A stretch of 64,000 nt of DNA. Source: Escherichia phage PhaxI. Shown here piece by piece: positions 2,554-58,424 of this stretch. Under the pieces are notes generated by a model. It saw only the letters and a list, made by a program, of their open reading frames with translations. It did no database searches and was not told the origin of the DNA. The stretch lies in sequence record JN673056, one strand, 5' to 3'. The stretch's first letter is position 1. Each line of letters opens with the position of its first letter. Both the position numbers and the translations under genes were made by a program.

Positions 2554-3068
2554 TTCGTTTCCTCTTGCTTGTTGATCGTAATTAATAAATCGGTGCCCAA
2601 GACTTTCTTGGACAATATATTGATTGCTTCATGAATCGCCATTATTGACGGGAGTTTTTCATCGTTAATTTCGGAACCCCCGCGTTCTGTTAAATACATA
2701 TTACGCAGACGATTGTGCTGTGCCCTGTTGACACAAGAAACATTCAATGCGATATTCAGGATATACATCATTTGTTCAGTTGTAACATCCTTTGGAATAG
2801 CATGAACATAATATATCGCATCTTCAAAATAGATATGCTGTAATGACTCTGGAATTTCTTCCCCGCCAAAAGCAAAATCTTCAATGCGTTTAAAAAGTGT
2901 TTCCGGCTCTGGTGTTGTAATATGTTGCGTTACAGTAGCCGCACCATCTGGTTCTTTGTTGAATTTGGTCGCGATAACGACATGTCTGCCAGGTTTAATA
3001 AACTCAGCAAAGTTCTGTGCCATTTGCGGGGCGTGTTCCGCGTAATATGATACGACGACTGTAAACAT
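2538..3068 (-). CDS. Hypothetical protein
   Basis: 176-aa ORF tightly packed between uvsX and the pyrophosphatase gene; no motif recognised. Confidence 0.45.
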   Translation of the reverse strand: MFTVVVSYYAEHAPQMAQNFAEFIKPGRHVVIATKFNKEPDGAATVTQHITTPEPETLFKRIEDFAFGGEEIPESLQHIYFEDAIYYVHAIPKDVTTEQMMYILNIALNVSCVNRAQHNRLRNMYLTERGGSEINDEKLPSIMAIHEAINILSKKVLGTDLLITINKQEETKWPIH

Positions 3069-5219: not shown

Positions 5220-5890
5220 TCAATACTCCCAAAATCACGATTGAGAAACGCAAAAACAGCCTGCTCTATAGTCAGGCCATTGGACTTCATCATACCTGCG
5301 GGAACGGTAGGGAACAAGCCTTTATGCCGTTGGCGGTGGTCATGAACTCTCTCCCACTTCTCGACCACCAGGCTTTCATTGAAGTCTGCGCCGCCGTTGC
5401 GTGATTTCACACGGGAAACACAGGTTTCAAGCGGGGTGTCCATGAAGAGCACGACTAATTCGCGCGGTGGGCGCGTCAGGCGGGGAATCCATGAGCTGAG
5501 CAAAGTTGAAGGGATGATTCCTTCAAACAACACGTCATATTTCAGATATTCCGGCTGATCAGCAATGGACAAGGCGAACAACATCTGCTCGGTATCTTTC
5601 AGGGAATCAACACCTTTAGACTTAGACTTGTCATATTTACCAATACAGATAATGTTATAGGAAGGGCAAACTGTGAGCATGATCTTGCCATTGTAGGTCA
5701 CGACATACGCCTGAGGATCATTCTCCGCCAGATAGGAAGGGACAGTGGACTTGCCGCTACCGTTGGAGCCTTTAACGTAATACAACTCTCCTCGTGCCGG
5801 ATATTCCCCTTCGACAGCAGGTGGTTTTACAAACAGATGTACGGGGCGCTTCAACAACCCTTTGAGCGAATACGACATGGTGTGCTCCAA
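5216..5890 (-). CDS. P-loop kinase (nucleotide or polynucleotide kinase-like)
   Basis: Walker A GSNGSGKST at residues ~42-50; 224 aa; ATGA-type overlap with the TS-family gene. Confidence 0.5.
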   Translation of the reverse strand: MEHTMSYSLKGLLKRPVHLFVKPPAVEGEYPARGELYYVKGSNGSGKSTVPSYLAENDPQAYVVTYNGKIMLTVCPSYNIICIGKYDKSKSKGVDSLKDTEQMLFALSIADQPEYLKYDVLFEGIIPSTLLSSWIPRLTRPPRELVVLFMDTPLETCVSRVKSRNGGADFNESLVVEKWERVHDHRQRHKGLFPTVPAGMMKSNGLTIEQAVFAFLNRDFGSID

Positions 5891-11304: not shown

Positions 11305-11548
11305 TTAAATGAGTTTTTTAGATTTCAATTCACCCTTCAACAACCGAGCATCAGAACATTCAGCTGTTAGCCTTGACAGAAGAGGAGGCGTGATCAATTT
11401 TTTGACCTTTGCTTCTTCGATGTCATACTCTTCACAAACACTGGCCATCGTTTCAAGGATTGATTCCTTGCGTTGGCTTGCTCTCATCAACACCAATTCG
11501 GAAAAAGAATCTGGTGTGAGCACTTGTGCTATTTGTTGATCAGACATC
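11305..11548 (-). CDS. Hypothetical protein
   Basis: Start set at MSDQQIAQV (ATG overlaps the stop of the upstream zinc-ribbon gene: GATGTCTGA); the track ORF extends to 11634. Confidence 0.4.
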
Positions 11549-11785
11549 GATTGTATTCCCCTTCCCTGATTGCTTCTTAATATGACGCAAAACGTCTTTG
11601 AAGCCATCAGGCGCGGACTGAGGACCACGAACACCAGATACGATCTTTGGTGCTCCGATAATCATTTTTATTTCGCCGCCACATTCAGAACATGGCTCTA
11701 ATTCAGGCGTGTGACGTTCAGCACAAGATTTTCGAGCACTAAACGAATTTCCACAACCTGTACAGGCATAATCATAAAACGGCAT
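11540..11785 (-). CDS. Zinc-ribbon protein (FmdB-like)
   Basis: MPFYDYACTGCG...CSECGG: two CxxC pairs; start taken at the internal Met to avoid overlap. Confidence 0.5.
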   Translation of the reverse strand: MPFYDYACTGCGNSFSARKSCAERHTPELEPCSECGGEIKMIIGAPKIVSGVRGPQSAPDGFKDVLRHIKKQSGKGNTIDV

Positions 11786-27135: not shown

Positions 27136-27681
27136 TCACTTTTTACCAAAAAACGATTTTAATAAATTATCAGGAATTTTTGGAAGACCTAATTTTGCCG
27201 CCAGTTCTTCTGGGGAATTACCCAAAATTTTTCTACCGTTGATGAGACCACCAACAAATTTGGTTCGATCTGTTGGACTGCGAAGGATAGTGGAGGCACC
27301 GCCAACTTTTGCGTCATACATCAGAATATGAGCGCCACGGTCACCGACGAAACGCCAGCCTTCCGCTTCAGTAACCTGACCTTTGTCAGCTGACTTGCCG
27401 AAGAAAAATTCAAAACCATCATGGACGGCAACAACTTCTTGGCCTTGGGTAATGCCGTGGGTCTGGTCTGGAGTTAGCTTCACTTTGATGGTGTTGCCAT
27501 TAGTCAATTCCAGATTATAGATGTCGGCCTGATTATCTGGAGTGATCTGGGTCACGGTGGCACCAGTACACCATTGGGTTCCGTCGGCCTGTTTGGTGAT
27601 GGTTACACTTTTGCCTTGTATGCCGCCATGAGTTTGCGGTTGTTGAGCTTGTTCTTTAAAATATTCGATAAACGGTTTCAT
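27136..27681 (-). CDS. Hypothetical protein sharing a C-terminal motif with the adjacent 795-aa protein
   Basis: C-terminus SPEELAAKLGLPKIPDNLLKSFF resembles SPDAIVRQLGLPQIPVNILNDF in 27733..30120. Confidence 0.45.
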   Translation of the reverse strand: MKPFIEYFKEQAQQPQTHGGIQGKSVTITKQADGTQWCTGATVTQITPDNQADIYNLELTNGNTIKVKLTPDQTHGITQGQEVVAVHDGFEFFFGKSADKGQVTEAEGWRFVGDRGAHILMYDAKVGGASTILRSPTDRTKFVGGLINGRKILGNSPEELAAKLGLPKIPDNLLKSFFGKK

Positions 27682-36097: not shown

Positions 36098-36890
36098 TAT
36101 TTTGTTGCTCCCGTTCTAATGCTCGTTTCTTTGCTTCTTCCCAATCTGGTTCCATAGAACATATTTCGTCTTCCAGATTGAATTGAGTAGAGCCGAAGTC
36201 ATAGTCTGAATTATCTTCGGCGTCGGCGGTAATGGTATTTTCACTCTTTGTGAGACATTGAAGTATACCGCGAGGAATTTTCTTATTCTTTTCCTCTTCT
36301 TTGATGGCGATTTGCTTTTGGCGTTCCTTTTCGCGCTGGGCTTCTTTCTTAGTTTCAAAATTTCCGATACGCTCACGAAAGTCCATTGTTATACCAGTGC
36401 TGTCTACGAATGTCTGTTGCTGGAAGTCTGGGTCATCTGATAATGCAGCGAAACCACCTGCTTCTTCAAATGAACGCAACTTGATATAATTGTGTTCTTC
36501 TTCACTGGTGAGTTTCTTGGCGAATGAACGATCGGCGCACATCGTTACCCAAGAGAAGAAATTGATTTTTCCTTTCTTGCCGATATGACTGACGTCAAAT
36601 GTATGGAGGTAACGAAGGATGTTGACAACGGCCTCACTGACCATGTCTTCGCGGTATGGATAATCACGATAGTTGTAGCGCATACTCATGTTCTTAATAA
36701 TCATCTGAACATTCATGGCCACATAATTGGGGATTCTTGGTAGGGGTGTTCCTTCGGCCAAAGCCTTTTTGCGAGCCGGAATCCAATCTCTCAATATTCC
36801 AACAACACGGTCATTATCTTCGTCTGTGAAATATTTGGTGACGTTATCACCCCTGTCTACAAAATTCATACCCATCGTGATAATCCTCAA
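36084..36890 (-). CDS. 55: Late-transcription sigma factor gp55-like, with C-terminal extension
   Basis: Region NVQMIIKNMSMRYNYRDYPYREDMVSEAVVNILRYLHTFD resembles the T4 gp55 core (..LSKRFNFSGY...EMIADGIEASIKGLHNFD); 268 aa with a Lys/Glu-rich tail. Confidence 0.55.
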   Translation of the reverse strand: MRIITMGMNFVDRGDNVTKYFTDEDNDRVVGILRDWIPARKKALAEGTPLPRIPNYVAMNVQMIIKNMSMRYNYRDYPYREDMVSEAVVNILRYLHTFDVSHIGKKGKINFFSWVTMCADRSFAKKLTSEEEHNYIKLRSFEEAGGFAALSDDPDFQQQTFVDSTGITMDFRERIGNFETKKEAQREKERQKQIAIKEEEKNKKIPRGILQCLTKSENTITADAEDNSDYDFGSTQFNLEDEICSMEPDWEEAKKRALEREQQNNGDC

Positions 36891-37429
36891 ATACCAATGA
36901 ATTCATTGAAAGAACCAACGACTTTCTTGACCGAGAAACGGTTATTTTCAAGAACCATTGAACTATCTTCTTTGGCTCTAACGCTCCACTGATCCGCAAT
37001 TTCGTTGCCCATCGTTCCTGCATGACCTTTCACCCATTTTAATTCAAGTTCACAAATTGAACAAACTTTGTCATAATAATCGAACAACTCGAGCAGAAGT
37101 TCTGTGTTCTTAGGCGGCATTCCTTCATATTCCCATTTACGACGCCACTCCAAAACGCTATTGATAACATATTGGCTGTCGGATATAATGCGGGCTGGGG
37201 GAATGCAGCGTTCACCGCAATTAGAGAATTTCCATAGGATCTTCATCGCGTTTATAACCCCGAGTAACTCAGCTATATTGTTCGTTGACGGCGGGGGTAA
37301 ATACCCATAAAACACTTTCCATTGCTCTCCAGTGATTGGACTGATGGCAAATGCCCAACCAGCGGCTCGTGTCTTCTGAGGGGATGATGCCCCGTCAGTG
37401 TATATTTCAATCATGTATAAGTATCCCAA
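36887..37429 (-). CDS. Ribonuclease HI
   Basis: MIEIYTDGAS...NIAELLGVINAM...ISDSQYVI: canonical RNase HI motifs. Confidence 0.8.
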   Translation of the reverse strand: MGYLYMIEIYTDGASSPQKTRAAGWAFAISPITGEQWKVFYGYLPPPSTNNIAELLGVINAMKILWKFSNCGERCIPPARIISDSQYVINSVLEWRRKWEYEGMPPKNTELLLELFDYYDKVCSICELELKWVKGHAGTMGNEIADQWSVRAKEDSSMVLENNRFSVKKVVGSFNEFIGI

Positions 37430-44675: not shown

Positions 44676-45125
44676 TCAGAAACGGGTATCGCTGACCGTT
44701 CTGTATCGCACACCCTGAAACTGTTTAGCGAGTTTAACAAATTCCATCGCTGGCAAATCAACTTTGTAGACCTTCATGCGCTGTTTGCCGTCCATGTTCA
44801 ACGCAGCGACAAATCGGTGAGACCCGTCAACAACGTAATTGTCAGAAGACACCCAAACTCGACCCATGGGCTTCTTATTTCTGATCTGCTTCATAATCTT
44901 CCAGACCTTCATTTTATTGATTTCGTTCTGGGTAAGACGAAGCATTTTGATGGGCACTTGCGCAGCATCTATGGACACGCCGTTGTCTTCAAGATATTTG
45001 TGAAAATCTTCTTGTTTGTCGGCATCGATTTGCGGCATAGAAGAACGAGAAAGCCCGAGGTTCCCAACAGGAATCCTCAGGCCATTTATGATATTCATCC
45101 AGTCAATAAAGGATGTAAGGAACAT
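44676..45125 (-). CDS. ParB-like nuclease domain protein
   Basis: YVVDGSHRFVAA matches the ParB/Srx-fold GxHR motif; 149 aa. Confidence 0.5.
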   Translation of the reverse strand: MFLTSFIDWMNIINGLRIPVGNLGLSRSSMPQIDADKQEDFHKYLEDNGVSIDAAQVPIKMLRLTQNEINKMKVWKIMKQIRNKKPMGRVWVSSDNYVVDGSHRFVAALNMDGKQRMKVYKVDLPAMEFVKLAKQFQGVRYRTVSDTRF

Positions 45126-45493: not shown

Positions 45494-46000
45494 TTATAGG
45501 GTAACAAGTGATACGGTAAAAACCATCGTCCCATCTGTTGTCATTTTTCTTGAAACTGGGAAGACGCGAGGCTGACAGAATATCCATTCTTTCTCCATGG
45601 ACGCCAAGTCCAGCATATCCATTTCTGATTCATCGCCTTTGTTCACAAATTTTTCTAGAGAACCAAAGACATTAAGCCCCTCTGGGAGTCCGTTTCGATG
45701 TTTATAACAAATGCGGGCAACAGCTTTGGTTCCATACGATTTAGAAAATTGTTTGGCCACATGCTTCAGTTCGCTGAAACTAAGACAAGAATCCCATGTC
45801 TGAAACATGTCTCCTCGTTCAAACATCATCTCCAAACGCGCAACGTCCTCTTTAGGCAACCCGCGATAAAGTGTGGTCATCTGCGGTTCGCGTAATTCTT
45901 GCACCAGACCACGGATGGCAGGGGAAACAGTGCCAGGGCGCATGATGTGGGACTTATCATGGACGAGGTAAAATAAATCTTGAATTTGTTGATCGGTCAT
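45494..46000 (-). CDS. Hypothetical protein
   Basis: 168 aa; preceded by a second copy of the same cassette. Confidence 0.45.
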   Translation of the reverse strand: MTDQQIQDLFYLVHDKSHIMRPGTVSPAIRGLVQELREPQMTTLYRGLPKEDVARLEMMFERGDMFQTWDSCLSFSELKHVAKQFSKSYGTKAVARICYKHRNGLPEGLNVFGSLEKFVNKGDESEMDMLDLASMEKEWIFCQPRVFPVSRKMTTDGTMVFTVSLVTL

Positions 46001-46293: not shown

Positions 46294-46412
46294 GATATAT
46301 CTACCTTTCACCTGTGAACCCATCGTTCGCCAGTTATTGAATATACGCATTTGCCTTATAGAAGTAAACCCCTAAAAGTAAAAATCCCCCAACGTTTGTT
46401 GGGGATCTTCAG

Positions 46413-46745
46413 TTACTTGCGCAGGGCAACCACGTATTCGGCAAGTTCACCCATGGTCGGGTCGTCGCCTTTACCGCCCAGCCAGCCATCAGAGATCTCG
46501 ACATTGAACTCTTCTTCTAGTTCCATGACGATTTCGATGGCATCAAGATCGTCGCCGCCGAGGTCTTTCTTGGTGCGGAGGCCAGCCAGTTTATCCAGGG
46601 CGTCATTCATAATCACTTCCGCGTCGACGATGCCTTTGATGCTGCTCTTGTCTTCGTCACTGACTTCCAGGTTCAGATTGTCAGTGGCGTACTGAGCCAG
46701 GTGACGCATTACTTCAACATAAGTTGGTTTGTTTGACATAAGCAT
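46413..46745 (-). CDS. Acyl-carrier-protein-like acidic protein with Asp in place of the phosphopantetheine-attachment Ser
   Basis: DLGGDDLDAIEIVMELEEEFNVEISD versus canonical ACP [26 protein letters not shown]. Confidence 0.5.
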   Translation of the reverse strand: MLMSNKPTYVEVMRHLAQYATDNLNLEVSDEDKSSIKGIVDAEVIMNDALDKLAGLRTKKDLGGDDLDAIEIVMELEEEFNVEISDGWLGGKGDDPTMGELAEYVVALRK

Positions 46746-46758
46746 ATCTCAAAATGAA

Positions 46759-46774
46759 GGCGGGTTTCCCCGCC
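46759..46774 (-). terminator. Stem-loop between the vWA gene and the ACP-like gene
   Basis: GGCGGGtttcCCCGCC. Confidence 0.45.
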
Positions 46775-46782
46775 AGTTGAAT

Positions 46783-48999
46783 TTAGATTTTGACTTCTTT
46801 TTCAGCCAGTTCGGCAGTGACGGTGTATTTCACCCCATCAACGTCCACATCCATAGTGGATTCTTCCAAATCCAGGTCGGTAAACCAACCATGGCCTGCA
46901 ACAATCCCATAAACTACCTTGGACAGCGTTTTGTTCAGAGATCGAACTTCGTTGATAGCTGCTTTTGCTGCATCACCAATCCAACTTTCGATCAGCTTTT
47001 TCTGAGTCTCTTCCGGTACGCTGGTGATCATCGGCGATTTAACAAACGCATTGTATTCGGCCAGGGCATTAGCGATCAGCTGATCAGCGACATTCAGTTT
47101 TTTACCGTCCGTCTGTTTTTTGATAACAGACGCGATGCTCGGCAGTGAAGATGCGCCTTTGATTTTCACATTCAATTCACGACTCATATAGACATCGGTT
47201 GATTCTACAGAAGAAGTCTTCGGTGAAAATCCATAGTCGCGAATGCCGTTTGCTGACAGGAAATCAGCCGCTTCTTTGCCATATTTTGAAGCCAGACCCG
47301 TAGCGTTGCCTTTTCCAACCAGTTCATCACGGTAGAATTTCAGAACTTTCTGTTTTGCCTTCAATGCTTCACGGCGCACATTGTCTGCAAAGAATTCAGC
47401 AGCACTGATATTCTTTGTCATGGCGCGGTTAACCATTGGGACACTTTCCAGATTTACAATGAAGACTTCCGGCCCACCAAACACATGAACACCCATGGCA
47501 GTCAAATCCTGTGCCACCTTAGCCCGAACAATCGGAGAATCTGCAGTGATAGGCATTGTTTTCAGGTTGATGATACCATCCTTGACAATGGTGTAATTGC
47601 GATAACGCCATGTATCCAGCTCTTCAGGAAGTTCATATTTCTTCTGTACAAACTCGGGCACAACAACCGTCCCGTGTTGAACTGTCTGCACACTGATGTT
47701 AGGACGTTCTGAATTATAGACCAAATTGCTGATCGGGACAATCCCTTTATCATCTGCTGGATTGAATTCCGGCGTCCAATCTTCGTGCTCGGCCAGTTTG
47801 AGCGCCAGGGCTTTACGCTCTTCTTTAGAAGTCGCATTCGCAATCTCTTCGGCCAACTTGTCTTCGGTGTCGTCAACTTTTTGTATAGTACCGCGCCCAA
47901 TGCTCTTGTAAGAGAATAGCGGATGCTTGGTGACGATAGAGACATCTGCTTCAGCCAAATACGTCAGAACATCAACAATGGTGGTGGCGTCTTCAGCCGG
48001 AACCATATTATAATCGATGCCATCAACTCCTCGCAGAGATTCGTCTACGATAGCCTGAGTCAGATCGACTTTGATGTTGGAGTAATCCTGCTTGGTGAAA
48101 CAGTTGCTGTATTGTTTGATGAAGCGGACGTCACCCGTTTTCTTCAGCGCAGCCCAAACCAAATCTGCGTCCATGGTATACACGCCGTAAAATGCCAGCA
48201 CGTATGCCGCTTGGATGTCTGCCAGATTATCCAGCTGGTCGATCATGTTGGGGTTTACAACCCACAGCTGAGAAACGCTTTCAGGGATGCTGACGTGGCC
48301 AATAGGGTGCTCTTCATCAGGATGCACAGCTAAAACAGTCGCCACGCCATTTTCAACATAAATGGCATGGGTGTAAACCAGGGGAACATCGACCACCACT
48401 TTCGGTGAAGAAGTTTTTAGCACGTTTTCCAATTCGGTCTGATATTCATTCTGGCCTTCGGCGAATACGTGGGTCGCACCAGAACGTTCTGCCATTAGCG
48501 CCAGCAGTTCGCGATTACAATACCAACCGTATTCGATGAAGGTAATGTTATCAAACGCTTTGGGCAGTACTTCAGCGGCATCCAGGATTTCATTAGAGCG
48601 CCAGCAGTTGTCATATCCGTCGGTCATGAACGCCAGGTTATTGACATAACCAGGTTTGTTCAGGCTCATCGCGGTTTCAGCAGCCAACTTCAGAGGTTCT
48701 ACAAATCCCGTACAACCTGACGGTTGCAGGAAGCGGTCAATCAGTTTATTGATTTCACTGAGATCGGTCGCGCTATTGATCTGACGGCCAGCGAATACCG
48801 TACCGAAATCACCACGGGATGAAAAGTAAAGAATGCTGACGGTATCTTCTGGTTTAACCAGAGACGGGAGATTTTCCTTCAGATGCTTACGGACTTCTGG
48901 AAGTGAAAGATACATGGACCGGGAGATATCCACAACGATTACATGGTTAGACGGTGCGACGGTCGCAACCGCATTCTTAAATGTTAATGATTCAATCAT
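46783..48999 (-). CDS. von Willebrand factor A (vWA) domain protein, ~740 aa
   Basis: N-terminal MIDAS-like HVIVVDISRSMY (DxSxS) plus downstream T and D positions; rest unassigned; start set at MIESLTF (GAAGGT RBS; the track ORF starts at 49035). Confidence 0.6.
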   Translation of the reverse strand: MIESLTFKNAVATVAPSNHVIVVDISRSMYLSLPEVRKHLKENLPSLVKPEDTVSILYFSSRGDFGTVFAGRQINSATDLSEINKLIDRFLQPSGCTGFVEPLKLAAETAMSLNKPGYVNNLAFMTDGYDNCWRSNEILDAAEVLPKAFDNITFIEYGWYCNRELLALMAERSGATHVFAEGQNEYQTELENVLKTSSPKVVVDVPLVYTHAIYVENGVATVLAVHPDEEHPIGHVSIPESVSQLWVVNPNMIDQLDNLADIQAAYVLAFYGVYTMDADLVWAALKKTGDVRFIKQYSNCFTKQDYSNIKVDLTQAIVDESLRGVDGIDYNMVPAEDATTIVDVLTYLAEADVSIVTKHPLFSYKSIGRGTIQKVDDTEDKLAEEIANATSKEERKALALKLAEHEDWTPEFNPADDKGIVPISNLVYNSERPNISVQTVQHGTVVVPEFVQKKYELPEELDTWRYRNYTIVKDGIINLKTMPITADSPIVRAKVAQDLTAMGVHVFGGPEVFIVNLESVPMVNRAMTKNISAAEFFADNVRREALKAKQKVLKFYRDELVGKGNATGLASKYGKEAADFLSANGIRDYGFSPKTSSVESTDVYMSRELNVKIKGASSLPSIASVIKKQTDGKKLNVADQLIANALAEYNAFVKSPMITSVPEETQKKLIESWIGDAAKAAINEVRSLNKTLSKVVYGIVAGHGWFTDLDLEESTMDVDVDGVKYTVTAELAEKEVKI

Positions 49000-49266
49000 C
49001 GTTATTACCTTCTTTGGTGGTTTGAGCGGCTTCACCTTCCGGCTTTGCCAGCATGTGTTCTATGAATTCGCGATTAGTTTCAATCTGTTGGATTAAAACT
49101 TCGCTGGGTTTAAACTGTGAGTCAAGAGAGTCAACTCTTGAACGCAAAAATGGTTTGGGCAAAGTAATTTCCCTCGCTTTACAATTGGGCCATTATACCT
49201 TGGCTTGTTAATTGAAACGCCCAGCAATTTGCCGGACGTTATTGATTTTGAAAGACTTTTGAAGAA

Positions 49267-49992
49267 TTACAAGTATGACACCACGATGGCTCTATACAGC
49301 GCCCCCACGGAATCACCAGGTTGGGCTTTCGGATCTAACAAGAATTTCTTAACACGATCACAAGCTGCTTGGCGTTTGTCTTCTGACAGGTCACACCACG
49401 GATAATCCCCTGAAGCAGCATTACACGTTTTCGCCAAACGCAGGACAAGTTCAGAATTTAGATCTTCAGAAGTCATAAACGAGCGAAGATACGCTTCCAC
49501 CAAAGATCTTGCTTCACCATTACGCCGTTCGTTATAACGTTCATTATCGGTGCGAACAAATTCAACTCGACATCCCCGACTTGGATCCTTGGGATGACGA
49601 AACACGACGGATTGTCCTTTACCCTCAAGGAATTCAGAACCACCCATCTCATGTATCGCTTCCCTTTCTGACACATATTCATCAATGTTGATCTTAGCAT
49701 CTTTGGCGGACACATCGATGATCTGCTTTTCTACTATCGCGCGATATGCTTCCAGTTCCCATAGTTGAGAAAGGGTCTTTTCATAGGCCAGCTGCTTGCC
49801 TATTTCTTCATCGAAGTGGCAGGGGTCTACCGATGTGGAACTATTCTTACCCCACACAATGAACCCATTGTCCATCTTGAAATGGCATGTAATGACGCGG
49901 TGACCACCAACTTCACGGTCTTCATAAATCACTTCGGCGATGTGGGACTTTAGAAGTTCTGGAGTGAGTTTAATCCCTTCACGATTACCCAT
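49267..49992 (-). CDS. Hypothetical protein
   Basis: 241-aa ORF. Confidence 0.45.
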   Translation of the reverse strand: MGNREGIKLTPELLKSHIAEVIYEDREVGGHRVITCHFKMDNGFIVWGKNSSTSVDPCHFDEEIGKQLAYEKTLSQLWELEAYRAIVEKQIIDVSAKDAKINIDEYVSEREAIHEMGGSEFLEGKGQSVVFRHPKDPSRGCRVEFVRTDNERYNERRNGEARSLVEAYLRSFMTSEDLNSELVLRLAKTCNAASGDYPWCDLSEDKRQAACDRVKKFLLDPKAQPGDSVGALYRAIVVSYL

Positions 49993-50236
49993 TATCCACC
50001 CCCACTTTCACTAAACGGTCTAGTAATTGGCGGATATTACGGGGGCAATGTTCTAGATCTTCATCAGACAAATACAGCACGTTGGTCTGAATATCTTTAA
50101 AAGTTGAAAGGTTATTCAACTCAGATTCGACGACGGTTTTCAATTGCGTATACGCTTCATCGCAATAATTTCGGCGGTTGCAGTCGGTCATTACCTGAGA
50201 TAACTTTTCAAAAGATTCTTGTATTTCCTTTGACAT
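49985..50236 (-). CDS. Hypothetical protein
   Basis: 83-aa ORF. Confidence 0.4.
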   Translation of the reverse strand: MSKEIQESFEKLSQVMTDCNRRNYCDEAYTQLKTVVESELNNLSTFKDIQTNVLYLSDEDLEHCPRNIRQLLDRLVKVGVDNG

Positions 50237-50246
50237 CGTTTGACAC

Positions 50247-50618
50247 CTATAGTTGGTTACACACAGATATTACTTTACGGCACGTGTCGATATCGAACAA
50301 GCCGATATGGCAATCGCGCTTCTTGATCCCCAGATTATGAGCCAGCCAGTTGTAAGCATCACTCCTGCTCCTCTGCCCACTTTTCCAGATAGGGTCAAAC
50401 GACCTATGAGCTTCCTGCTTAGCAGCACGGAGAGCGGCATTCGCCATCCTTCCCATAGGGGTCTTTCCATCACCATGTTTATGGCAACCGACTCGGGCGT
50501 CACATGGAGTGCACACCCAGAACTTCAGATTGCGGAGTTCAGGGCGGTGGGGGTATACAGCATCACCACTGACGTATTTGGCAGGAAGGCCGCAATAATC
50601 ACAGATGACAGGTTTCAT
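50247..50618 (-). CDS. Zinc-finger protein
   Basis: CDYCG...CTPCDARVGCH; start set at MKPVICDYCG because the upstream in-frame ATG lies inside a terminator hairpin. Confidence 0.45.
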   Translation of the reverse strand: MKPVICDYCGLPAKYVSGDAVYPHRPELRNLKFWVCTPCDARVGCHKHGDGKTPMGRMANAALRAAKQEAHRSFDPIWKSGQRSRSDAYNWLAHNLGIKKRDCHIGLFDIDTCRKVISVCNQL

Positions 50619-50635
50619 ATTCTTTGTCCAAAAGA

Positions 50636-50656
50636 AACCCCGCACACGGCGGGGTT
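50636..50656 (-). terminator. Rho-independent terminator
   Basis: aaCCCCGCacacgGCGGGGtt with a T-run on the minus strand. Confidence 0.5.
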
Positions 50657-50677
50657 GCTTAGGCCGAGGCCGACAGA

Positions 50678-51049
50678 TTATTTCAGGAGTTTTTCCAGTT
50701 CTTCAACAGAGAGACCTTCCAGTTCCTGCTGTTTCTTACGCTGGATCAGTTCCATGATCGCCTGGTTATTCGCTTTGCGTTCGGCGGCGGTTGCGCTTTC
50801 GTCACGTTCTTTCAATTTGACACCGATGATCGCTTTCACGATATCGAAACGCAGTTGTAACTGAGAGTCGACTGCGCTTTTCACGCCGATGAAATCTTCT
50901 TCATCGCTGGCGGCTTCCTTCACCTGACGGCTGAGGTCTTTCGCCAGTTCGTTTAGGGCATTCAGGTTCAGATCCCAAACCTGCTCAACAGATAGCAGAC
51001 CTTTGTTAGAGTTGAAACGCAGTTTTAAACGGGTTGCTTGATCAAACAT
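50678..51049 (-). CDS. Hypothetical protein
   Basis: 123-aa ORF, predicted helical. Confidence 0.45.
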   Translation of the reverse strand: MFDQATRLKLRFNSNKGLLSVEQVWDLNLNALNELAKDLSRQVKEAASDEEDFIGVKSAVDSQLQLRFDIVKAIIGVKLKERDESATAAERKANNQAIMELIQRKKQQELEGLSVEELEKLLK

Positions 51050-51086
51050 TTCATTGTTCCTTATTACGAATTTGTGGTCAAATCAA

Positions 51087-53105
51087 TTAGAAAATGACTT
51101 TTACAGTACGGTTAAACGCGCCGGACACTTTGACGAACACGTGGTTGCGTTGCGTCGTCGAGAATCCCAGACCGGACAGTTGGTTTTCATTCGGCTGGAC
51201 TTTCATTTTACTACCCAACATTTCAAAAACCTTACGATGTTTATCCAGTTCCGGCTTCAGATATTCGTTGTAGAAACCACGAGTACCTTCAGGATTAGCA
51301 CAGCCTTCCAGGATGAAGAACACGTGCTTGTTGCCTGTCTGCTCGCCATCCCAATGGTTTGGTGAGTTCAGGACCAGCTGTACTTTCTGGAAGGTCGCAG
51401 TCTTGATACCCCAAACTTCTTTAGACTTATCAACATTAGCCAGTTCGGACTTAATGCCAACAACTTGTTTGTCTTTAACAGTCAAGATGACTGCGGTGAT
51501 ACGTCCCTGATCTTTCAGGCCAGGATGGCTGAAACGATGCGTTGCGCCTTTGTATTCTACTTCGACTTCAAACCCTTCGTCGATTTTTTCACGTTGATTG
51601 TAGTTGTGGATTTCGAAACGGTATTCACCATCGCGCAGCTTGCTTTCATCTGTAAAGATGATATTTTCCACCGGAGCGCGGTTTGGATCAATACCATCCA
51701 TACCGTTCATATCGATATCCAGATGGGCACCTGTCATAGAGCGGCGATCGCGGAAGTAAACGTGCTCCATGTTGTTGAACATATGCAGATCGAGGTCGTC
51801 GTTATTGTGCCACGCCAAGGAAACGCGCAGATACCCGTCAACTTTACCGCCAGCAGCCTTTACACGTTCTTTAATGGAATCGGTCACTTCACCGTTGTAA
51901 GACCAGGAGAACCCGTTGTTCCACTTGAACAGGTTAGGCGCATCTGGGTTCGCCGGAGCAACCAGGGACATCAGGTTGCTAGTATGAGAATTCTCTACAA
52001 GCACTTCCATTGAATGCGCTTTTGGCAGAACATTGCTCAGGAAATCATCAACGCTGATCTCTTCAACTTTTTCCAGGGACTTGGTCGGAGTTTTCACTTC
52101 GGCGGCCAGCTGTGCAAACGGATCCATCGCTTTCTGAGCAGCCAGATCTGCGAACAGAACGTTGTTGATTGTCAGATCATCGTAAACCGCATAACGACGC
52201 GCCAGTGAGTCTTCCAAACCCAGAGCAATAACTTCTTTCTGAGCGTTTTCGATCATGGATTTTGAAACCAGCGCTGTCGGACGTTTGTAGTTCGCCGGAG
52301 CAACTTTGGATTCAAACGATTTAACAGCCTTTTCCAGTTCCACGCCTTCACTGATATCTGTCAGCAGAGTGCCGATAACTGTGTTGCGGATGCCGTGTGG
52401 AACATGATTGTTTGAACGGTATCCAGTATGCCATGCCCAAAGAGAACGGGCTGATTCGGGGACTTGTTCATATGCCTTTTTGGTTTCAACAAATCCCTTC
52501 ACTGCTGCTTTGTGTTCTGCGCCGCGATACAGAGAATTCTGGTCAATCAGTTCCAGAACGATTTCAGCTGATTCCAGAGTAATTTCACGCAGACCGCGTT
52601 CAAACAATTCAATAGCCTGGCGGATTTCACCTTTTTTCGAAGCGATTGCGTCCGGACGCAGAACATAGCTACCAAGTAATTGGGTATGGAAATGATTGTA
52701 AGTACGGATTTTGCCATCTTCACCAGATTCGTGATTGTGAGACAGGCCGACTTTGGCAGAATCGTTAAAATAAACATCGACGATTGCGTGTTGTTTGACA
52801 TACGCGGAAAGAGCCGCAGCCACCACGTCATATTCATTACCCAGATCAATGTTGTCCCAGATAGAAATTACGTTCAGTTCTGAATCGATGGTGACAACAC
52901 CGCCGATGTTACGGATGAATTGTTTACAGCAGGTGCAATCGTGTTCAGTACGTTCGCGGTACAGCGGGTTAGTACCAGCAGGGAAAGATGCCAGATACAG
53001 ATCCCAAAGAGCATCTTTATCGATATTGGTCATGAACAGACCAGTTGCGGACATCGCCAGCACGTTGTTATTAACTGCCGTTGCGAAGGGTTTGAATTCT
53101 GCCAT
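51087..53105 (-). CDS. Large hypothetical protein (672 aa)
   Basis: Long ORF; N-terminal HDCTCC; a KVDGYLR tract noted but not assignable to a family. Confidence 0.55.
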   Translation of the reverse strand: MAEFKPFATAVNNNVLAMSATGLFMTNIDKDALWDLYLASFPAGTNPLYRERTEHDCTCCKQFIRNIGGVVTIDSELNVISIWDNIDLGNEYDVVAAALSAYVKQHAIVDVYFNDSAKVGLSHNHESGEDGKIRTYNHFHTQLLGSYVLRPDAIASKKGEIRQAIELFERGLREITLESAEIVLELIDQNSLYRGAEHKAAVKGFVETKKAYEQVPESARSLWAWHTGYRSNNHVPHGIRNTVIGTLLTDISEGVELEKAVKSFESKVAPANYKRPTALVSKSMIENAQKEVIALGLEDSLARRYAVYDDLTINNVLFADLAAQKAMDPFAQLAAEVKTPTKSLEKVEEISVDDFLSNVLPKAHSMEVLVENSHTSNLMSLVAPANPDAPNLFKWNNGFSWSYNGEVTDSIKERVKAAGGKVDGYLRVSLAWHNNDDLDLHMFNNMEHVYFRDRRSMTGAHLDIDMNGMDGIDPNRAPVENIIFTDESKLRDGEYRFEIHNYNQREKIDEGFEVEVEYKGATHRFSHPGLKDQGRITAVILTVKDKQVVGIKSELANVDKSKEVWGIKTATFQKVQLVLNSPNHWDGEQTGNKHVFFILEGCANPEGTRGFYNEYLKPELDKHRKVFEMLGSKMKVQPNENQLSGLGFSTTQRNHVFVKVSGAFNRTVKVIF

Positions 53106-53201
53106 GGTATAGTCTTCCTGTTTCAGTTCAAAGTGAGCGCCCTTATCGGGGCGCGTCGTTAAAGTGAGGTCAATATACGCTGAAAAGATTTATTGAAAAG
53201 T

Positions 53202-53609
53202 TTAAACGGGAATCATGTTTACTCGAATACTTCTGAACTGTTTCCCGTCATAACTGGTGTAACCAACAACCGTAACTGATCTTGTTCCCTTTGGATAACC
53301 CTTTGGAGTACTCACAACGCGCACAGGGCGCTTGCTTTCTTTATCGTATTTCGAAATCAATTTCAAAAGATGTTTATCGATCTGGCTTAAACTATCACCA
53401 TACACGGTATATTGATATTGCTCGCAATTACCCAACAAAATGATAAATTTATAAATTTTGTCGACCAAAGATCGACATTTTGGATCATCATAATGATGCC
53501 GACAGACTTGACATTCATATTTCCCAGTATTCATGTTGAACAATTTTGTCGCCCGACTTGAACACGCTGGGCATACTTTCCATGAACGATGATGTTTTAC
53601 GGGTTTCAT
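53202..53609 (-). CDS. Zinc-ribbon protein
   Basis: CPACSS...CQVCRH (two CxxC pairs); 135 aa. Confidence 0.45.
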   Translation of the reverse strand: MKPVKHHRSWKVCPACSSRATKLFNMNTGKYECQVCRHHYDDPKCRSLVDKIYKFIILLGNCEQYQYTVYGDSLSQIDKHLLKLISKYDKESKRPVRVVSTPKGYPKGTRSVTVVGYTSYDGKQFRSIRVNMIPV

Positions 53610-54832
53610 TTTTTCATCTTCTCTAACAGATTAATAGAACGAACGGGAGTCTTCTGTAATGGCTGATTAACTTCACCACCATTATACCCCACCTTTCCTC
53701 GAGGTTTCTCCCCGCGCATCACCGCCTCAACGCAGCGGGTATATTTCTGAAGTTCACAGAACATGTTCTCCAACTGCATAACATTCATGCAACGGTCTTC
53801 CGGTTCTTCTGCCGACCAAAATTCATTACGTTTATACCCGTACTGAGCGAACAATTGATCTTGATGATCACGAACCCAGAATATGCATTCTTCATGCGTC
53901 ATGCCGTCCTTGTCCAAAAATAACAGATCGATACCAGCACGGCAACCTGGACCAGCGATAGTGAAGTGGTTTTCACTGAATGGATATTCATCGATGTATG
54001 TAAAATCAACCCAAATCTGGTATGCCAAGAATGGTCCAAGCCCCTCAATGTCGTCATACATCGCCTGGTAAACAGAGTCGGGACGGCTAAATTCCCTGAG
54101 GCGATCAAAGTAATGAGGGTGTTTGTTGACGAATGCCTTCAAAGAGCGGATGACTCGCATCGGCATGTATGGTTCCCAGCCTTCTATTTTGTATTCACCA
54201 GGATTATCTTCGGCCAGCTTCTTGGCAACCTTGTAATCCATTTCATCTATAACACCGCCAACCCGATGGACTTTTACCTTCATGCCGCCAAAGCGTTGCT
54301 CCTTGTGGTTGACAACTAGTTCAGGGAAAGCCAGGCATTGTTTCAGACCGCCTGTATTAAACGCATTGGTGAAAACTTTGCCACCTTTAGATTCGAATTC
54401 CTGAAGAACATCTCGACACCATTCAAGATTTATGTTTCCGAATTCTTCGATCGTCCATGGACCACCCAAAGCCTGTATAGGTTCCCACATGTTGTACATG
54501 CGGAACAATACACAGTTGAACATTTTGTCAGATAGCGTGAGATCCTGATCGAGGATGATATTATTGATCAAATTTCGAGACTGCCTATCGTGCTCTCTCC
54601 GGACGTTACAGAACTTGACCTGCCGTAGTATGGGATTATCCGTCCAAGGAGCAGGAAGACGCTGGACGTCCTTTCTCACGTGGATCTTATAACGCTCGCT
54701 CATCCATTCGTATGCGAGTTGTTTATGGAATGGGCTTAACATGGGATGTGCAGATTTAATTTTAACTTCCCGAACACCGCAATAAGGAATGTCACACGGT
54801 TTATCTTTCATGGTATCCTCTCTAGAATACAA
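53606..54832 (-). CDS. Hypothetical protein (408 aa)
   Basis: Long ORF with no recognised motif. Confidence 0.5.
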   Translation of the reverse strand: MYSREDTMKDKPCDIPYCGVREVKIKSAHPMLSPFHKQLAYEWMSERYKIHVRKDVQRLPAPWTDNPILRQVKFCNVRREHDRQSRNLINNIILDQDLTLSDKMFNCVLFRMYNMWEPIQALGGPWTIEEFGNINLEWCRDVLQEFESKGGKVFTNAFNTGGLKQCLAFPELVVNHKEQRFGGMKVKVHRVGGVIDEMDYKVAKKLAEDNPGEYKIEGWEPYMPMRVIRSLKAFVNKHPHYFDRLREFSRPDSVYQAMYDDIEGLGPFLAYQIWVDFTYIDEYPFSENHFTIAGPGCRAGIDLLFLDKDGMTHEECIFWVRDHQDQLFAQYGYKRNEFWSAEEPEDRCMNVMQLENMFCELQKYTRCVEAVMRGEKPRGKVGYNGGEVNQPLQKTPVRSINLLEKMKK

Positions 54833-54881
54833 AAAACAGAGGCCATTATAGCCTCTGTTGTTTAGTGAATAACGGATTATA

Positions 54882-55754
54882 TTAATCGAAGCGAGAGAGG
54901 TGTGTCACAGTGTTTTGAACAGGTGCGCACGCGTATACACGAACATTAGCACCCCACACCCCACACAGCTTAGGCATATTGGTATCGTTAATGATATACG
55001 CTGGCACATAACTTTCAATTTGGCCGTTAACATCTACGGGTCGAGAAGATTTTTCAACTGCCATAGAAAGAATTATTTCCAACGTTTTTGGAGATACCAA
55101 ACGCCACGCCGTCAAATCATCAACAAATACCTGACCTTCTTCAATTGCCATGCTGGCAACGATGTCATTGATCTGACGGGAAGGGGTATTCGTCAGCATA
55201 TCAGAGAAATCAGGCTCTTTGAACACAGCCATGTTTTTCAGGAATTTTCCTTTCGGATATTCTTTGCCATTCCACATCACAGTCTCATTCACTTTGATGC
55301 ATGCCTGAGGGAATTCACCTTCAACGCGTAACTGGCCAACTGGGAAACCGCGTGAATAATAATATTCCAGTGCCGGACCGACTTCATCTTCTGAGCGAAT
55401 AAATTTGCTCATGTTGGAGGCATAAACACGCTGCAAGCACTCATCGCCGTTGAAACCAGCAATGTGTGCCACGCCGTCATTGACTGTTGTGATGTCGCCC
55501 TGAGCGTCCAAAATCTGGCGCATAATGTCTTTGATGTCGACAACAGCAGGTTCTTTCAGGACTCGCGGAGATGCAGTGAACTCAATTTTCACCTCGTGGT
55601 CGAAATAAGCCGCTTCCAGTAATTCGCGGGTCTCTTCCAGAACCAGTTTGGCCTGATTGCGAATTTTACCGAAGTCAGGGGCTGTAATATCTCCAGCCGC
55701 ATTACCAAAAGCCAAATTCAGTCTCACGTTTTTATTAAATGTAGTTGTCATAAT
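54882..55754 (-). CDS. Hypothetical protein (N-terminal MazG-like helical motif; weak)
   Basis: Start set at MTTTFNK; KLVLEETRELLEAAYF; the track ORF extends to 55838, overlapping regA. Confidence 0.45.
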   Translation of the reverse strand: MMTTTFNKNVRLNLAFGNAAGDITAPDFGKIRNQAKLVLEETRELLEAAYFDHEVKIEFTASPRVLKEPAVVDIKDIMRQILDAQGDITTVNDGVAHIAGFNGDECLQRVYASNMSKFIRSEDEVGPALEYYYSRGFPVGQLRVEGEFPQACIKVNETVMWNGKEYPKGKFLKNMAVFKEPDFSDMLTNTPSRQINDIVASMAIEEGQVFVDDLTAWRLVSPKTLEIILSMAVEKSSRPVDVNGQIESYVPAYIINDTNMPKLCGVWGANVRVYACAPVQNTVTHLSRFD

Positions 55755-55767
55755 ATAGCGACTCCAG

Positions 55768-56163
55768 TTATTCAATTTTTGCCCGACTTGGGCGAATGGT
55801 GTATTTTGGAACCAGTTTCCACTCTGAAACTTGGTCATGTTTTACAACTTTGATCCGAGACATGTCAGCCACTTCGGTTATTTGTTCCGGATGCAAGATC
55901 TTAACCATATTCCATTGCTCCAGAAGCCGTATAATCCGATTCATACGCAGGACATCTTCACGCGTAAAGCCGTTATAGTGCCCATCTAGCATGAACAAAT
56001 GCTTGAAATGCACGATGTGATATCTGCCAAATTTATGCAGGATATGGCACGTTTGATACAAGGTGTTAGGCTCTTGACGAGTGTTAACCCCTATCCGACT
56101 CAGCGTTTCCTTGATACCCAGGAAAATCCCTGGTTTGTCTTGGTTCAATTGAACTTCAACCAT
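55768..56163 (-). CDS. regA: Translational repressor RegA
   Basis: IKETLSRIGVN...LYQTCHILHKFGRYHIVHFKHLFMLDG...EWKLVPKYTI resembles T4 RegA; start set at MVEVQLNQ (the track ORF extends to 56232). Confidence 0.85.
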   Translation of the reverse strand: MVEVQLNQDKPGIFLGIKETLSRIGVNTRQEPNTLYQTCHILHKFGRYHIVHFKHLFMLDGHYNGFTREDVLRMNRIIRLLEQWNMVKILHPEQITEVADMSRIKVVKHDQVSEWKLVPKYTIRPSRAKIE

Positions 56164-56261
56164 ACAGTCAACAATGCTGGCCTCATCGTTGACAGCTGAA
56201 AGTTTTAAGATGTCCAGCGTATTACGCGCCATGACTCATACCCCTTTAACAATTATTTGAA

Positions 56262-57755: not shown

Positions 57756-58424
57756 TTAATCCAGCTGCATGCCGACGTAATAGTTGATGGTGCCGTCTGC
57801 GGATTGGAAGTTAACCAGTTGCATTTCGGCACAGGCGCGGATCACGTAGTTTCCTTCGATCATTTTCAGGTTGACCACATCAACAGGCATAGCAAAATCG
57901 CCCAGAGTTGTTTCGCCCAATTCAACAGTGTAATCGTTGGAATTATCGATAGTAGTGGTCGTGCCTACCAGACGAGTTTTACCGCCGCTGGCAACCAGAC
58001 GTACAGTTTTGTGGCCCAGAGTAGAACAGGCGCGGGTCAGCTCTTTCATTTTTTCAGGAGTGACCGTTGCTTCGAATTCTACAGACGGGAGATCGATGCT
58101 GTCTGCTGGAACGACCGTCAATTCTTTAGCGGAACGCCAGAATTGCAGTTGGGAGTTTTCACCTTTCAGCAAAATGTGGTCTTCTGACATTTCAATTTTA
58201 CCGCCTTTGAAACTCGGAAGACGCTGGATTGCCAGCAGTTTGGTGAGATCTAGAATCGGGAATTCGAACGGGAAGTCTTCGTCGATATCAGCGATAGCGA
58301 TAACTGTACTGGAATCGTTAACGGTGCGCAGCTTTTTACCAGGTGCCAGAACGATAGAGGGGCAGATGGTTTCAAAGTTAGCCAGCAGTTGTAAAGTGCG
58401 TTCGGAGAGAGTGATCTCTTGCAT
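57756..58424 (-). CDS. 45: Sliding clamp gp45
   Basis: 222 aa directly upstream of 44/62/regA (T4 synteny); size and composition fit gp45. Confidence 0.75.
   Translation of the reverse strand: MQEITLSERTLQLLANFETICPSIVLAPGKKLRTVNDSSTVIAIADIDEDFPFEFPILDLTKLLAIQRLPSFKGGKIEMSEDHILLKGENSQLQFWRSAKELTVVPADSIDLPSVEFEATVTPEKMKELTRACSTLGHKTVRLVASGGKTRLVGTTTTIDNSNDYTVELGETTLGDFAMPVDVVNLKMIEGNYVIRACAEMQLVNFQSADGTINYYVGMQLD

Follow-up and report, generated by a model that had tools for sequence, protein, structure and literature searches.

We analysed a block of eleven genes, at positions 46,413 to 55,754 of a 64,000-nucleotide stretch of DNA from Escherichia phage PhaxI (sequence record JN673056; this whole stretch is referred to below as the window), that follows the replication genes gp45-gp44-gp62-regA. 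In our assessment the block is probably a conserved part of the genome arm that serves replication and nucleotide metabolism in Kuttervirus and other enteric Ackermannviridae, and a mosaic of independent modules, not one system. One of its products, a 401-residue protein of the HMUDK_hel family, ends in a short peptide of a kind that is also found on DNA polymerase and on DNA-hypermodification enzymes of related phages. There is roughly an even chance that the post-replicative hypermodification proteins of the Ackermannviridae (HMUDK_hel, HMUD2 and ADDT) are clients of the gp45 sliding clamp, using the peptide of the polymerase and gp33 and coupling modification to clamps on new DNA and, jointly with this, that DUF8224 and its 123-residue partner form an undescribed two-component module and that a serine-less protein with the fold of acyl carrier protein (ACP) is a host ACP decoy.

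By nucleotide identity the source phage is a CBA120/ViI-like Kuttervirus of the Ackermannviridae, a family that has its replication core, and little beyond, in common with T4. Over positions 46413-55838 the nucleotide identity is 97% with Escherichia phage CBA120 and 95-97% with many Salmonella Kuttervirus genomes, and the block is matched by 278 phage records, whose hosts are Salmonella, Klebsiella, Escherichia, Dickeya, Shigella, Serratia and Erwinia. The gene order after gp45-gp44-gp62-regA is conserved in CBA120, ViI, Dickeya phage phiDP23.1 (Aglimvirinae) and Klebsiella phage Magnus (Taipeivirus). Because the same genes stand in the same order in these four phages, the backbone is old within the enteric Ackermannviridae. 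Identities to phiDP23.1 and Magnus are 68-76% for the 401-residue protein, 71-75% for a 672-residue protein, 72-74% for a 123-residue helical protein, 76-83% for a vWA protein, 58-77% for the ACP-like protein and 59-64% for a MazG-like protein. The GC content of the block is 0.460, against 0.448 +/- 0.023 for 1-kb windows over all 64 kb, which is no anomaly. The initial annotation had called the block an island; given this synteny, identity and composition, the term does not hold, and hundreds of genomes of Kuttervirus, Dickeya phages and Klebsiella phages already have these genes, with annotation. In a Vibrio Ackermannviridae phage other genes occupy the locus after regA and the block is absent there.

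The 401-residue protein matches Pfam family PF18723 (HMUDK_hel, '5-hmdU DNA kinase, helical domain', 5-hmdU being 5-hydroxymethyldeoxyuridine; formerly aGPT-Pplase1) with E = 6e-85 and 285.4 bits against a cutoff of 25, over profile positions 5-278 of 281. It is 80% identical over 405 columns, along its full length, to Vi01_130c (orf00160) of phage ViI, which itself matches PF18723 (E = 4e-83). Both genes lie between a MazG-like gene and DUF8224. On sequence and position, then, the protein is the ortholog of ViI gp160, with the same Pfam family and tail type and no substantive difference; the gpN numbers of Lee et al. are the orf numbers, as checked through gp67 (YP_004327432, Vi01_061c, orf00067). 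This gene is a published candidate for thymidine hypermodification, listed as 'aG/PT-PPlase1' by Lee et al. 2018 (PMC5889632), and gp160 was among the five recombinant lysates that jointly made 5-(2-aminoethoxy)methyldeoxyuridine (5-NeOmdU) on 5-hmdU DNA (PMC5889632). The name 'aGPT-Pplase1 domain-containing protein' persists in some GenBank records.

The PhaxI protein ends ...RSINLLEKMKK. In ViI, tails of the same type terminate the DNA polymerase (...RRVNLLSMMGKKG, with VNLLSMMGKKG), the HMUD2 kinase gp243 (...SSVSLLGLMRKA, with VSLLGLMRKA), the ADDT protein gp247 (...TSVNLMSLLKR) and gp160 (...GSVNLLDRLKKPE, with VNLLDRLKKPE). Scanning the last 14 residues of every open reading frame (ORF) of at least 100 residues in 119 kb of ViI, we found the pattern in 4 of 156, exactly these four proteins, where about 0.1 would be expected by chance; the motif was written after the tails had been seen, so this count overstates the significance.

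A stronger test is whether the tail covaries between phages. In Vibrio phage 1.244.A, where the tail-bearing proteins were identified from Pfam, the ends take the form [KR][KR]LW: the C-terminal fragment of DNA polymerase ends ...KARKLW, HMUDK_hel ...VTKRLW, ADDT ...KTRKLW and HMUD2 ...KTKRLW. The late-transcription coactivator gp33 of the same phage ends ...KTRKLF. The tail occurs in 7 of 424 ORFs (at least 50 residues, 150 kb), two of the seven being small proteins of unknown function. A third form is carried by a 106-kb metagenomic, Ackermannviridae-like contig (L025), on which HMUD2 ends ...NNVFDIFGA, ADDT ...HSLNDFFG and HMUDK_hel ...KSVLDLF. The sequence of the tail differs in the three lineages, yet the same set of proteins carries it. 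PhaxI gp45 is 37% identical to the clamp of the Vibrio phage and 32% identical to that of L025.

Some further features of these two genomes can be noted. The DNA polymerase of 1.244.A is annotated as several coding sequences (CDS) with other ORFs between them (L023, 33401-38842), and a 156-residue ORF among these (36459-36929) ends ...TRRLF, the tail type of that phage. At 7050-14817 of L025 the genes for HMUD2, ADDT and HMUDK_hel are found a short way upstream of gp45-gp44-gp62-regA, with small ORFs interspersed, two of which separate HMUDK_hel from gp45; here modification genes are again associated with the clamp cluster, and more tightly.

What could such a tail bind? In T4 the C-terminus of DNA polymerase gp43, EKASLDFLFG, mediates binding to the gp45 clamp, and the LDFLF motif is thought to be common to gp33 (PMC6212786). 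The tails described here resemble the T4 interaction motif (gp43 C-terminus, gp33, and the LDFLF loop of ligase; PMC6212786) in being hydrophobic peptides that follow a flexible basic linker at the extreme C-terminus, and those of L025 are near-identical in pattern to EKASLDFLFG. As in T4, the tail is common to the DNA polymerase and gp33 of one phage, with both carrying it in Vibrio phage 1.244.A, and the polymerase in ViI. By this analogy gp45 is the probable binding partner of the shared tail. In Kuttervirus the dialect reads [S]-[VI]-N-L-L-x-x-[LM]-K-K, which is not the T4 sequence, and its binding is putative. Its clients would include DNA-base-modifying enzymes, unlike the T4 clients that have been described, and in the literature searched we did not find DNA-base-modifying enzymes described as clamp clients.

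Three other PhaxI proteins have ends that are worth recording. The gp33 homolog (11305-11607, minus strand) ends ...ARLLKGELKSKKLI and a 181-residue protein (27136-27681, minus strand; phrog_4048) ends ...IPDNLLKSFFGKK, very like the tail of the ViI polymerase; each may be a further clamp client. The 83-residue protein of the block has RQLLDRLVK near its C-terminus, which resembles VNLLDRLKK of ViI gp160; it lies outside the strict motif and is a weak hint.

We propose that the C-terminal peptide tethers the HMUDK_hel protein to the gp45 clamp. With such a tether, thymidines would be hypermodified on newly replicated DNA, next to the tail-bearing polymerase, HMUD2 kinase and ADDT transferase. 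The HMUDK_hel protein may be a non-catalytic helper of 5-hmdU phosphorylation, acting in DNA binding or targeting. The gp160 ortholog would be the partner held at the clamp, and would bring HMUDK_HMUD1, a kinase without the tail, to DNA.

That kinase is encoded far from the block. The PhaxI 5-hmdU DNA kinase HMUDK_HMUD1 (PF18748, E = 1.7e-116) lies at window positions 5216-5890 on the minus strand, next to a thymidylate-synthase-like gene of the dUMP hydroxymethylase type (PF00303; 4176-5219, minus strand). Both belong to a minus-strand cluster for making 5-hmdU DNA (3068-5890), which also holds a dUTPase_2 gene (3068-3613) and a dNMP-kinase-like gene (3610-4194). In RefSeq the ViI kinase ortholog goes under the name 'terminase small subunit', apparently a mis-annotation. 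A good example of a closer arrangement is Bacillus phage SBSphiC, in which a 636-residue ORF fuses HMUDK_HMUD1 (residues 35-193) to HMUDK_hel (residues 312-597, PF18723 E = 1e-45; 24% identical to the PhaxI protein) and adjoins a thymidylate-synthase-like gene. In fusions of this SP10 gp186 type the kinase and the helical domain form one protein, whereas in PhaxI they are the products of separate genes about 48 kb apart. The SBSphiC fusion ends ...NPRISNLVK, without the Ackermannviridae tail that the PhaxI protein has.

Several points weigh against a clamp-tethered role for the gp160 family. In ViI the chemistry has been attributed to two kinases (gp67 and gp243), a serine:DNA transferase (gp247; clade 2, the present Pfam ADDT) and a pyridoxal-phosphate decarboxylase (gp226), and gp160 is not among the enzymes assigned to the 5-NeOmdU pathway (PMC8989533). 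The SP10 kinase domain is active in vitro without its C-terminal part (PMC8989533). With no assigned step and a kinase domain that is active alone, the role of gp160 may be minor or different. When the HMUDK_hel profile (18 sequences) was compared with ViI gp247 using hhalign, only the last 13 residues, which are the C-terminal tail, were aligned, at a probability of 0.5%. Finally, the link between tail and clamp rests on covariation and the T4 analogy. We also considered whether the 401-residue protein could be an ADDT-type transferase (clade 2) and excluded this, as there is no fold-level hhalign signal and no PF18724 (ADDT) match in the protein.

An alternative is that the tail is a generic basic DNA-binding tail, or that it docks to another common partner, such as the single-stranded DNA-binding protein gp32, the helicase or the helicase loader, and not to the clamp. 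The tails are indeed rich in Lys and Arg, and those of Kuttervirus have their hydrophobic residues before the basic ones, unlike LDFLF of T4. Nevertheless we consider this explanation unlikely. The classic T4 gp45 clients, polymerase and gp33, both bear the lineage-specific tail in the Vibrio phage, and in ViI the tail is on the polymerase and the gp33 tail is similar. The L025 dialect (SVLDLF, SLNDFFG, NVFDIFGA) is close to SLDFLFG, the clamp-binding end of T4 gp43, and a purely electrostatic tail would not need the conserved terminal L-W, L-F or L-L-x-x-L.

The junction between the HMUDK_hel gene and the neighbouring Zn-ribbon gene takes up insertions in relatives. In Dickeya phage phiDP23.1 a protein with NUMOD3 motifs, which are typical of homing endonucleases, is inserted between the two genes (L009, 4949-5872), and in Salmonella phage Maynard an HNH homing endonuclease is annotated at this junction.

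The HMUDK_hel gene and its MazG-like neighbour would together make up the first module of the block, a candidate NTP pyrophosphatase with the gp160 ortholog. For the 289-residue protein the best PHROG match is phrog_2144 'MazG-like pyrophosphatase' (E = 5e-133), a name that RefSeq also uses. It matches phrog_671 'nucleotide pyrophosphohydrolase' as well (E = 2.5e-19), and its identity across ViI, Dickeya and Klebsiella phages is 59-83%. At the level of PHROG only, it is a candidate MazG-like NTP pyrophosphatase. From its context it may plausibly shape the dNTP pool, for example by removing dTTP or dUTP as for hydroxymethyluracil phages (PMC8989533). Other searches did not bear the assignment out: there is no Pfam or NCBIfam match at E <= 0.1, no PDB match by single sequence or by a 4-sequence profile, and no hhalign match between the MazG-like profile and the dUTPase_2 protein of the window. 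The invariant residues E39, E40 and E43, in an EETRE helix, align to EETYE of E. coli MazG at E = 0.11, and this is the only part that aligned. The second acidic motif, DAQGD, has non-canonical spacing.

The initial annotation listed the products of the HMUDK_hel and MazG-like genes, as proteins of 408 and 290 residues, among its unknowns. Both belong to, or adjoin, known thymidine-hypermodification and nucleotide-pool functions of ViI-like phages. The third large unknown, the 672-residue protein, and its small partner remain proteins of unknown function.

This pair would form the second module. More than 7,500 database proteins match the 672-residue protein, and the best 120 listed include many at 49-55% identity from diverse contigs. 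Its homologs carry PF26675 (DUF8224) as the only Pfam domain on them; the protein itself has no Pfam match in our local library, Pfam TerD included. Using tblastn we found 557 phage records, including Caulobacter phage phiCbK, Bacillus phages Bcp1, TsarBomba and SP-15, Microcystis phage LMM01, Phaeobacter phage MD18, Aeromonas phage phiA8-29 and Salmonella phage Arash. Enterobacterial and Caulobacter phages are about 50% identical in this protein, and identity to the Bacillus phages is about 42-44%. In some Xanthomonas, Stenotrophomonas and Pseudomonas phages the N-terminal ~400 residues stand alone.

A homolog of the 123-residue partner lies directly downstream of DUF8224 in all 12 genomes that we compared, one small gene further along in one of them, Klebsiella phage Iguana (the others are PhaxI, CBA120, ViI, phiDP23.1, Magnus, phiCbK, Bcp1, Arash, MD18, phiA8-29 and the jumbo-phage contig L007). 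BLASTP of the partner against homologs outside the enteric Ackermannviridae gives E values of 5e-19 to 3e-31. DUF8224 and the 123-residue protein are a conserved two-gene cassette in many unrelated large phages, and their products may work jointly on a target that very different hosts share. Given the high conservation across phages of very different hosts, this activity would be directed at something universal and not at a host-specific protein.

Structure searches with the DUF8224 protein find a TerD-like beta-sandwich, with conserved acidic clusters in the domain. The identity to TerD (Klebsiella 2kxt; Streptomyces SCO6318 2qz7) is only 10-13%, the domain is embedded in a protein whose other ~500 residues have no match, and there is no ter operon context. 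The annotation of Bcp1 likens its homolog to YfaP/COG4676, and in that phage an AAA ATPase (359 residues) and a 361-residue hypothetical protein lie downstream of the pair (L012, 8552-11109). The label 'DNA-directed RNA polymerase' in some Salmonella phage GenBank records has no support in any of our searches. A link to NAD salvage is a further possibility. In Magnus and phiA8-29 the genes right after the pair encode ribose-phosphate pyrophosphokinase and nicotinamide phosphoribosyltransferase (NAMPT), and in Iguana genes for NMNAT and PnuC are near it; most contexts are without these genes. In ViI the DUF8224 homolog is annotated as two CDS (Vi01_128c and Vi01_129c, both orf00158; L002, 15301-17320), probably through a frameshift or sequencing error. 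Literature searches on DUF8224 or PF26675 found nothing.

The third module is best described as a variable slot. It lies between the DUF8224 cassette and the vWA gene, and would comprise the DUF3268 gene, the 83-residue gene and the gp49/gp66-family gene; the 56-residue gene also lies in this interval. Relatives differ here. In Kuttervirus Se-G the genes for ribose-phosphate pyrophosphokinase and NAMPT are inserted exactly at the position of the 104-nucleotide gap, and in Klebsiella phage Magnus and Aeromonas phage phiA8-29 the same two genes come right after the DUF8224 partner. They are present in Se-G, Magnus and phiA8-29 (L021, 2838-5350; L010, 6473-8976; L016, 7505-9998) and absent from PhaxI, CBA120 and ViI. 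In phiDP23.1 a gene annotated as putative NAMPT encodes only ~110 residues and looks like a remnant. No tblastn match to the 83-residue gene was found in the Dickeya or Klebsiella loci. Elsewhere in the block, the 135-residue Zn-ribbon gene is a variable accessory gene as well, present in CBA120 and the Dickeya phages and absent from ViI and Magnus.

The fourth module would consist of a MIDAS-competent vWA protein and an ACP-fold protein that cannot be phosphopantetheinylated, MIDAS being the metal ion-dependent adhesion site. Structure searches with the vWA protein show a vWA fold followed by a beta-sandwich. The MIDAS is intact (D24-I-S26-R-S28, T97 and D127); across 58 sequences T97 and D127 are invariant and the other positions at least 90% conserved. 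The arrangement resembles that of vWA-MIDAS proteins with a beta-sandwich (PDB 4fx5; 8s05_B of the archaeal ArnAB complex; ITIH1), to which the PhaxI protein adds ~480 residues of unmatched fold, and there is no AAA+/MoxR partner gene near it. The family is found in Ackermannviridae, in Pseudotevenvirus and related T4-like phages, in Rhizobium phages and in jumbo phages, that is, mostly in large phages.

The ACP-like protein matches PF00550 with 31 bits against a cutoff of 20.8, and ACPs in the PDB at E = 7e-07. It is acidic, and its similarity to E. coli AcpP and other bacterial ACPs extends across helix II and its flanks (DLGxDxLDxxExVMxLEEEF). However, its DLGGDDLD aligns with DLGADSLD of the E. 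coli and B. subtilis ACPs, so that in PhaxI, CBA120 and ViI an aspartate, Asp66, takes the place of the serine (Ser36 of AcpP). Among 13 sequences that we retrieved, all ten members of the phage family (~95-109 residues) have D or E at this site and the three ordinary ACPs have Ser. Because the replacement is found in all ten, it is a selected trait of the family. With the phosphopantetheine site gone from the alignment, the protein cannot act as a carrier; the initial annotation had called its fold carrier-protein-like. It differs from AcpP also in an N-terminal extension of ~30 residues and a conserved GDDPT(L/M)GE motif, and there are no fatty-acid or polyketide genes near it.

An exhaustive search of 1.84 billion representative proteins gave 73 matches at E <= 0.001, only eight of them at E <= 1e-10. 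We found nothing in the literature on a phage ACP without the serine. The protein might mimic ACP, perhaps including the negative charge of the phosphodiester, and act as a decoy that occupies a host ACP-binding protein; alternatively it might be an acidic ligand of another protein, with the MIDAS next door as one possibility. Both proposals are speculative. The gene itself is mosaic. It is 100% identical to those of PhiSH19 and CBA6, 64% to that of CBA120 and 61% to that of ViI, whereas its flanking genes are 97-100% identical and the vWA gene is 95-99% identical to those of CBA120 and ViI; the nucleotide match to CBA120 begins only at query base 253. These breaks in identity mark the ACP-like gene as a recombination hot spot.

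We now return to the block as a whole. The features are collected in Table 1. From the gene after regA (55768-56232) to the ACP-like gene there are 11 ORFs, all on the minus strand, with 95.6% of the stretch coding and junctions of -8 to +104 nucleotides. This confirms the genes that the initial annotation had listed, with small corrections of start codons and one extra small gene of 56 residues. The coordinates use the start codons annotated in CBA120. Each ORF matches a PHROG family at E <= 5e-39 and, together with the coding share, this indicates real genes and not chance ORFs. Four stem-loops with T runs, read on the minus strand, all fall exactly within intergenic gaps.

Table 1. Features of the PhaxI block and the nearby clamp gene (window coordinates)
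Feature	Position	Strand	Remarks
gp45 sliding clamp (outside the block)	57756-58424	minus	matches annotated gp45 of CBA120 and ViI
MazG-like	54882-55751	minus	289 aa; phrog_2144, phrog_671
Terminator-like hairpin, MazG-like/HMUDK_hel gap	54835-54859	minus	11-bp stem then TTTTTTG
HMUDK_hel	53606-54811	minus	401 aa from ATG; 408-aa form begins at upstream TTG
C-terminal tail codons (RSINLLEKMKK) of HMUDK_hel protein	53609-53641	minus	putative gp45-binding peptide
Zn-ribbon	53202-53609	minus	135 aa; phrog_16119 E = 9e-92, weak Zn-ribbon Pfam matches
DUF8224	51087-53105	minus	672 aa; central TerD-like beta-sandwich at ~residues 420-560
Helical partner of DUF8224	50678-51049	minus	123 aa; phrog_2018
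Terminator-like hairpin, 123-aa partner/DUF3268 gap	50636-50656	minus	8-bp stem with 6 G-C pairs, then T run
DUF3268 zinc-finger	50247-50618	minus	123 aa; PF11672 E = 2.7e-38, phrog_1934
83-aa protein	49985-50236	minus	phrog_9847 E = 5e-56
N4 gp49/Sf6 gp66 family, N-terminal domain	49267-49992	minus	241 aa; PF13876 E = 1.3e-11, phrog_4435 E = 2e-115
Intergenic gap, largest of the block	49163-49266		104 nt; insertion point of NAD-salvage genes in relatives
56-aa conserved ORF	48992-49162	minus	8-nt overlap with vWA start; phrog_8656 E = 5e-39; CBA120 orf145
vWA protein	46783-48999	minus	738 aa; N-terminal vWA with intact MIDAS, beta-sandwich, ~480 residues of unmatched fold
Terminator-like G+C hairpin, vWA/ACP-like gap	46759-46774	minus	GGCGGGGAAACCCGCC then T-rich tail; scored on both strands
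ACP-fold protein	46413-46745	minus	110 aa; PF00550, phrog_4154; Asp66 at serine site
Terminator-like hairpin after ACP-like gene, end of block	46386-46405	minus	8-bp stem then ATTTTT

The initial annotation read the vWA protein, the carrier-like protein and the large unknowns as a single accessory system, co-expressed and so far undescribed, that would serve host takeover, anti-defence or metabolism. In favour of this, the genes all point the same way and the junctions between them are short. Kuttervirus, Dickeya and Klebsiella Ackermannviridae also keep the same gene order, each with the vWA gene beside the ACP-like gene. We nevertheless find the idea quite improbable. The terminator-like hairpins cut the block, and its parts differ in their distribution across phages, so they are unlikely to be one operon or one system. 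Homologs of the vWA gene in Pseudotevenvirus, Rhizobium phages and jumbo phages have neighbours unrelated to the block, with neither an ACP-like nor a DUF8224 gene beside them, and these neighbourhoods, including those on jumbo-phage contigs, led us to exclude a conserved vWA, DUF8224 and ACP operon. DUF8224 co-occurs only with its small partner, the ACP-like matches are nearly restricted to the Ackermannviridae, and the block is not at this locus in the Vibrio phage. A search with the anti-phage defence families of PADLOC returned no match except a weak one for the ACP-like protein (E = 0.004), and that protein would be unable to carry the cofactor. The claim of co-expression is weaker than that of the genes themselves: co-orientation and short junctions are in its favour, and the four hairpins in the gaps count against it. 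In Klebsiella phage Magnus terminators are annotated after the MazG-like gene, which is the same junction, and after the NAMPT gene. We found nothing in the literature on the timing of Kuttervirus transcripts. The mosaic of modules that we favour must in turn accommodate two facts. The tight synteny in enteric Ackermannviridae makes some functional coupling between the modules possible, and no match in structure or function came up for DUF8224 or for most of the vWA protein.

Could DUF8224, its partner and the vWA protein be virion components, either structural or ejected? The homologs gp141c and gp140c of phage Arash are annotated 'structural protein' from virion mass spectrometry, and some GenBank records name the vWA homolog 'minor tail protein'. 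However, 116 proteins were identified in the Arash preparation, among them ribonucleotide reductases and subunits of RNA polymerase, and its authors grant that abundant proteins were carried over. With metabolic enzymes in such a proteome we set the label aside for the DUF8224 pair, retaining only that both homologs were detected and hence are expressed. The portion of the CsCl-purified Kuttervirus Sajous1 proteome that we drew on lists only the ACP of the block, with one spectrum. Furthermore, the neighbours of these genes are replication genes, the structural modules are far away, and the PHROG families concerned are of 'unknown function'. A place in the virion is therefore very improbable.

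There is next to no chance that T4 core proteins, such as DNA polymerase or topoisomerase subunits, are present among the ORFs in diverged or split form. The suggestion arises from the position of the ORFs directly downstream of regA, where T4 has gene 43; searches of Pfam, NCBIfam, PHROG and the PDB showed no similarity of theirs to families of polymerases or topoisomerases, structure searches yield only vWA and TerD folds, and the B-type DNA polymerase of the family is annotated elsewhere, in ViI at 145-148 kb beside gp243 and gp247. On these points the initial annotation was right: the polymerase does not follow regA here, the genes are not T4 genes, and most of them are still without a known function. 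Searches of the PDB with single sequences (the 672-, 750-, 408- and 289-residue proteins) and with profiles gave nothing usable, and in NCBIfam only the ACP-like protein was matched. Taken together, the earlier interpretation is partly right.

Beyond the end of the block, the 149-residue 'ParB-like' gene (44676-45125, minus strand) has no Pfam match at E <= 0.01 and matches only phrog_2859, of unknown function, at positions 316-467 of a 740-position profile. For a 168-residue protein (45494-46000, minus strand) the match is to phrog_832 'RNA polymerase ADP-ribosylase', at its C-terminal end (E = 9e-16). The same function is annotated for CBA120 orf140, and ViI has an endonuclease V gene at that position.

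In summary, the block as first posed adds little: it is annotated in hundreds of genomes, and published studies of thymidine hypermodification have already cloned one of its genes, gp160. Three parts of the block are still of interest: the DUF8224 cassette, the serine-less ACP family and the clamp-tail hypothesis for the gp160 family. DUF8224 and its partner are among the more widespread uncharacterised gene pairs of large phages, which points to a conserved activity on a common target. As the carrier serine is missing throughout the phage ACP family, the 'acyl carrier protein' labels given to it in databases are misleading. The tail gives the gp160 family, which is without an assigned step, a proposed role, and its covariation between lineages may bear on how hypermodification is targeted to replicated DNA and on the partial modification of thymidine.

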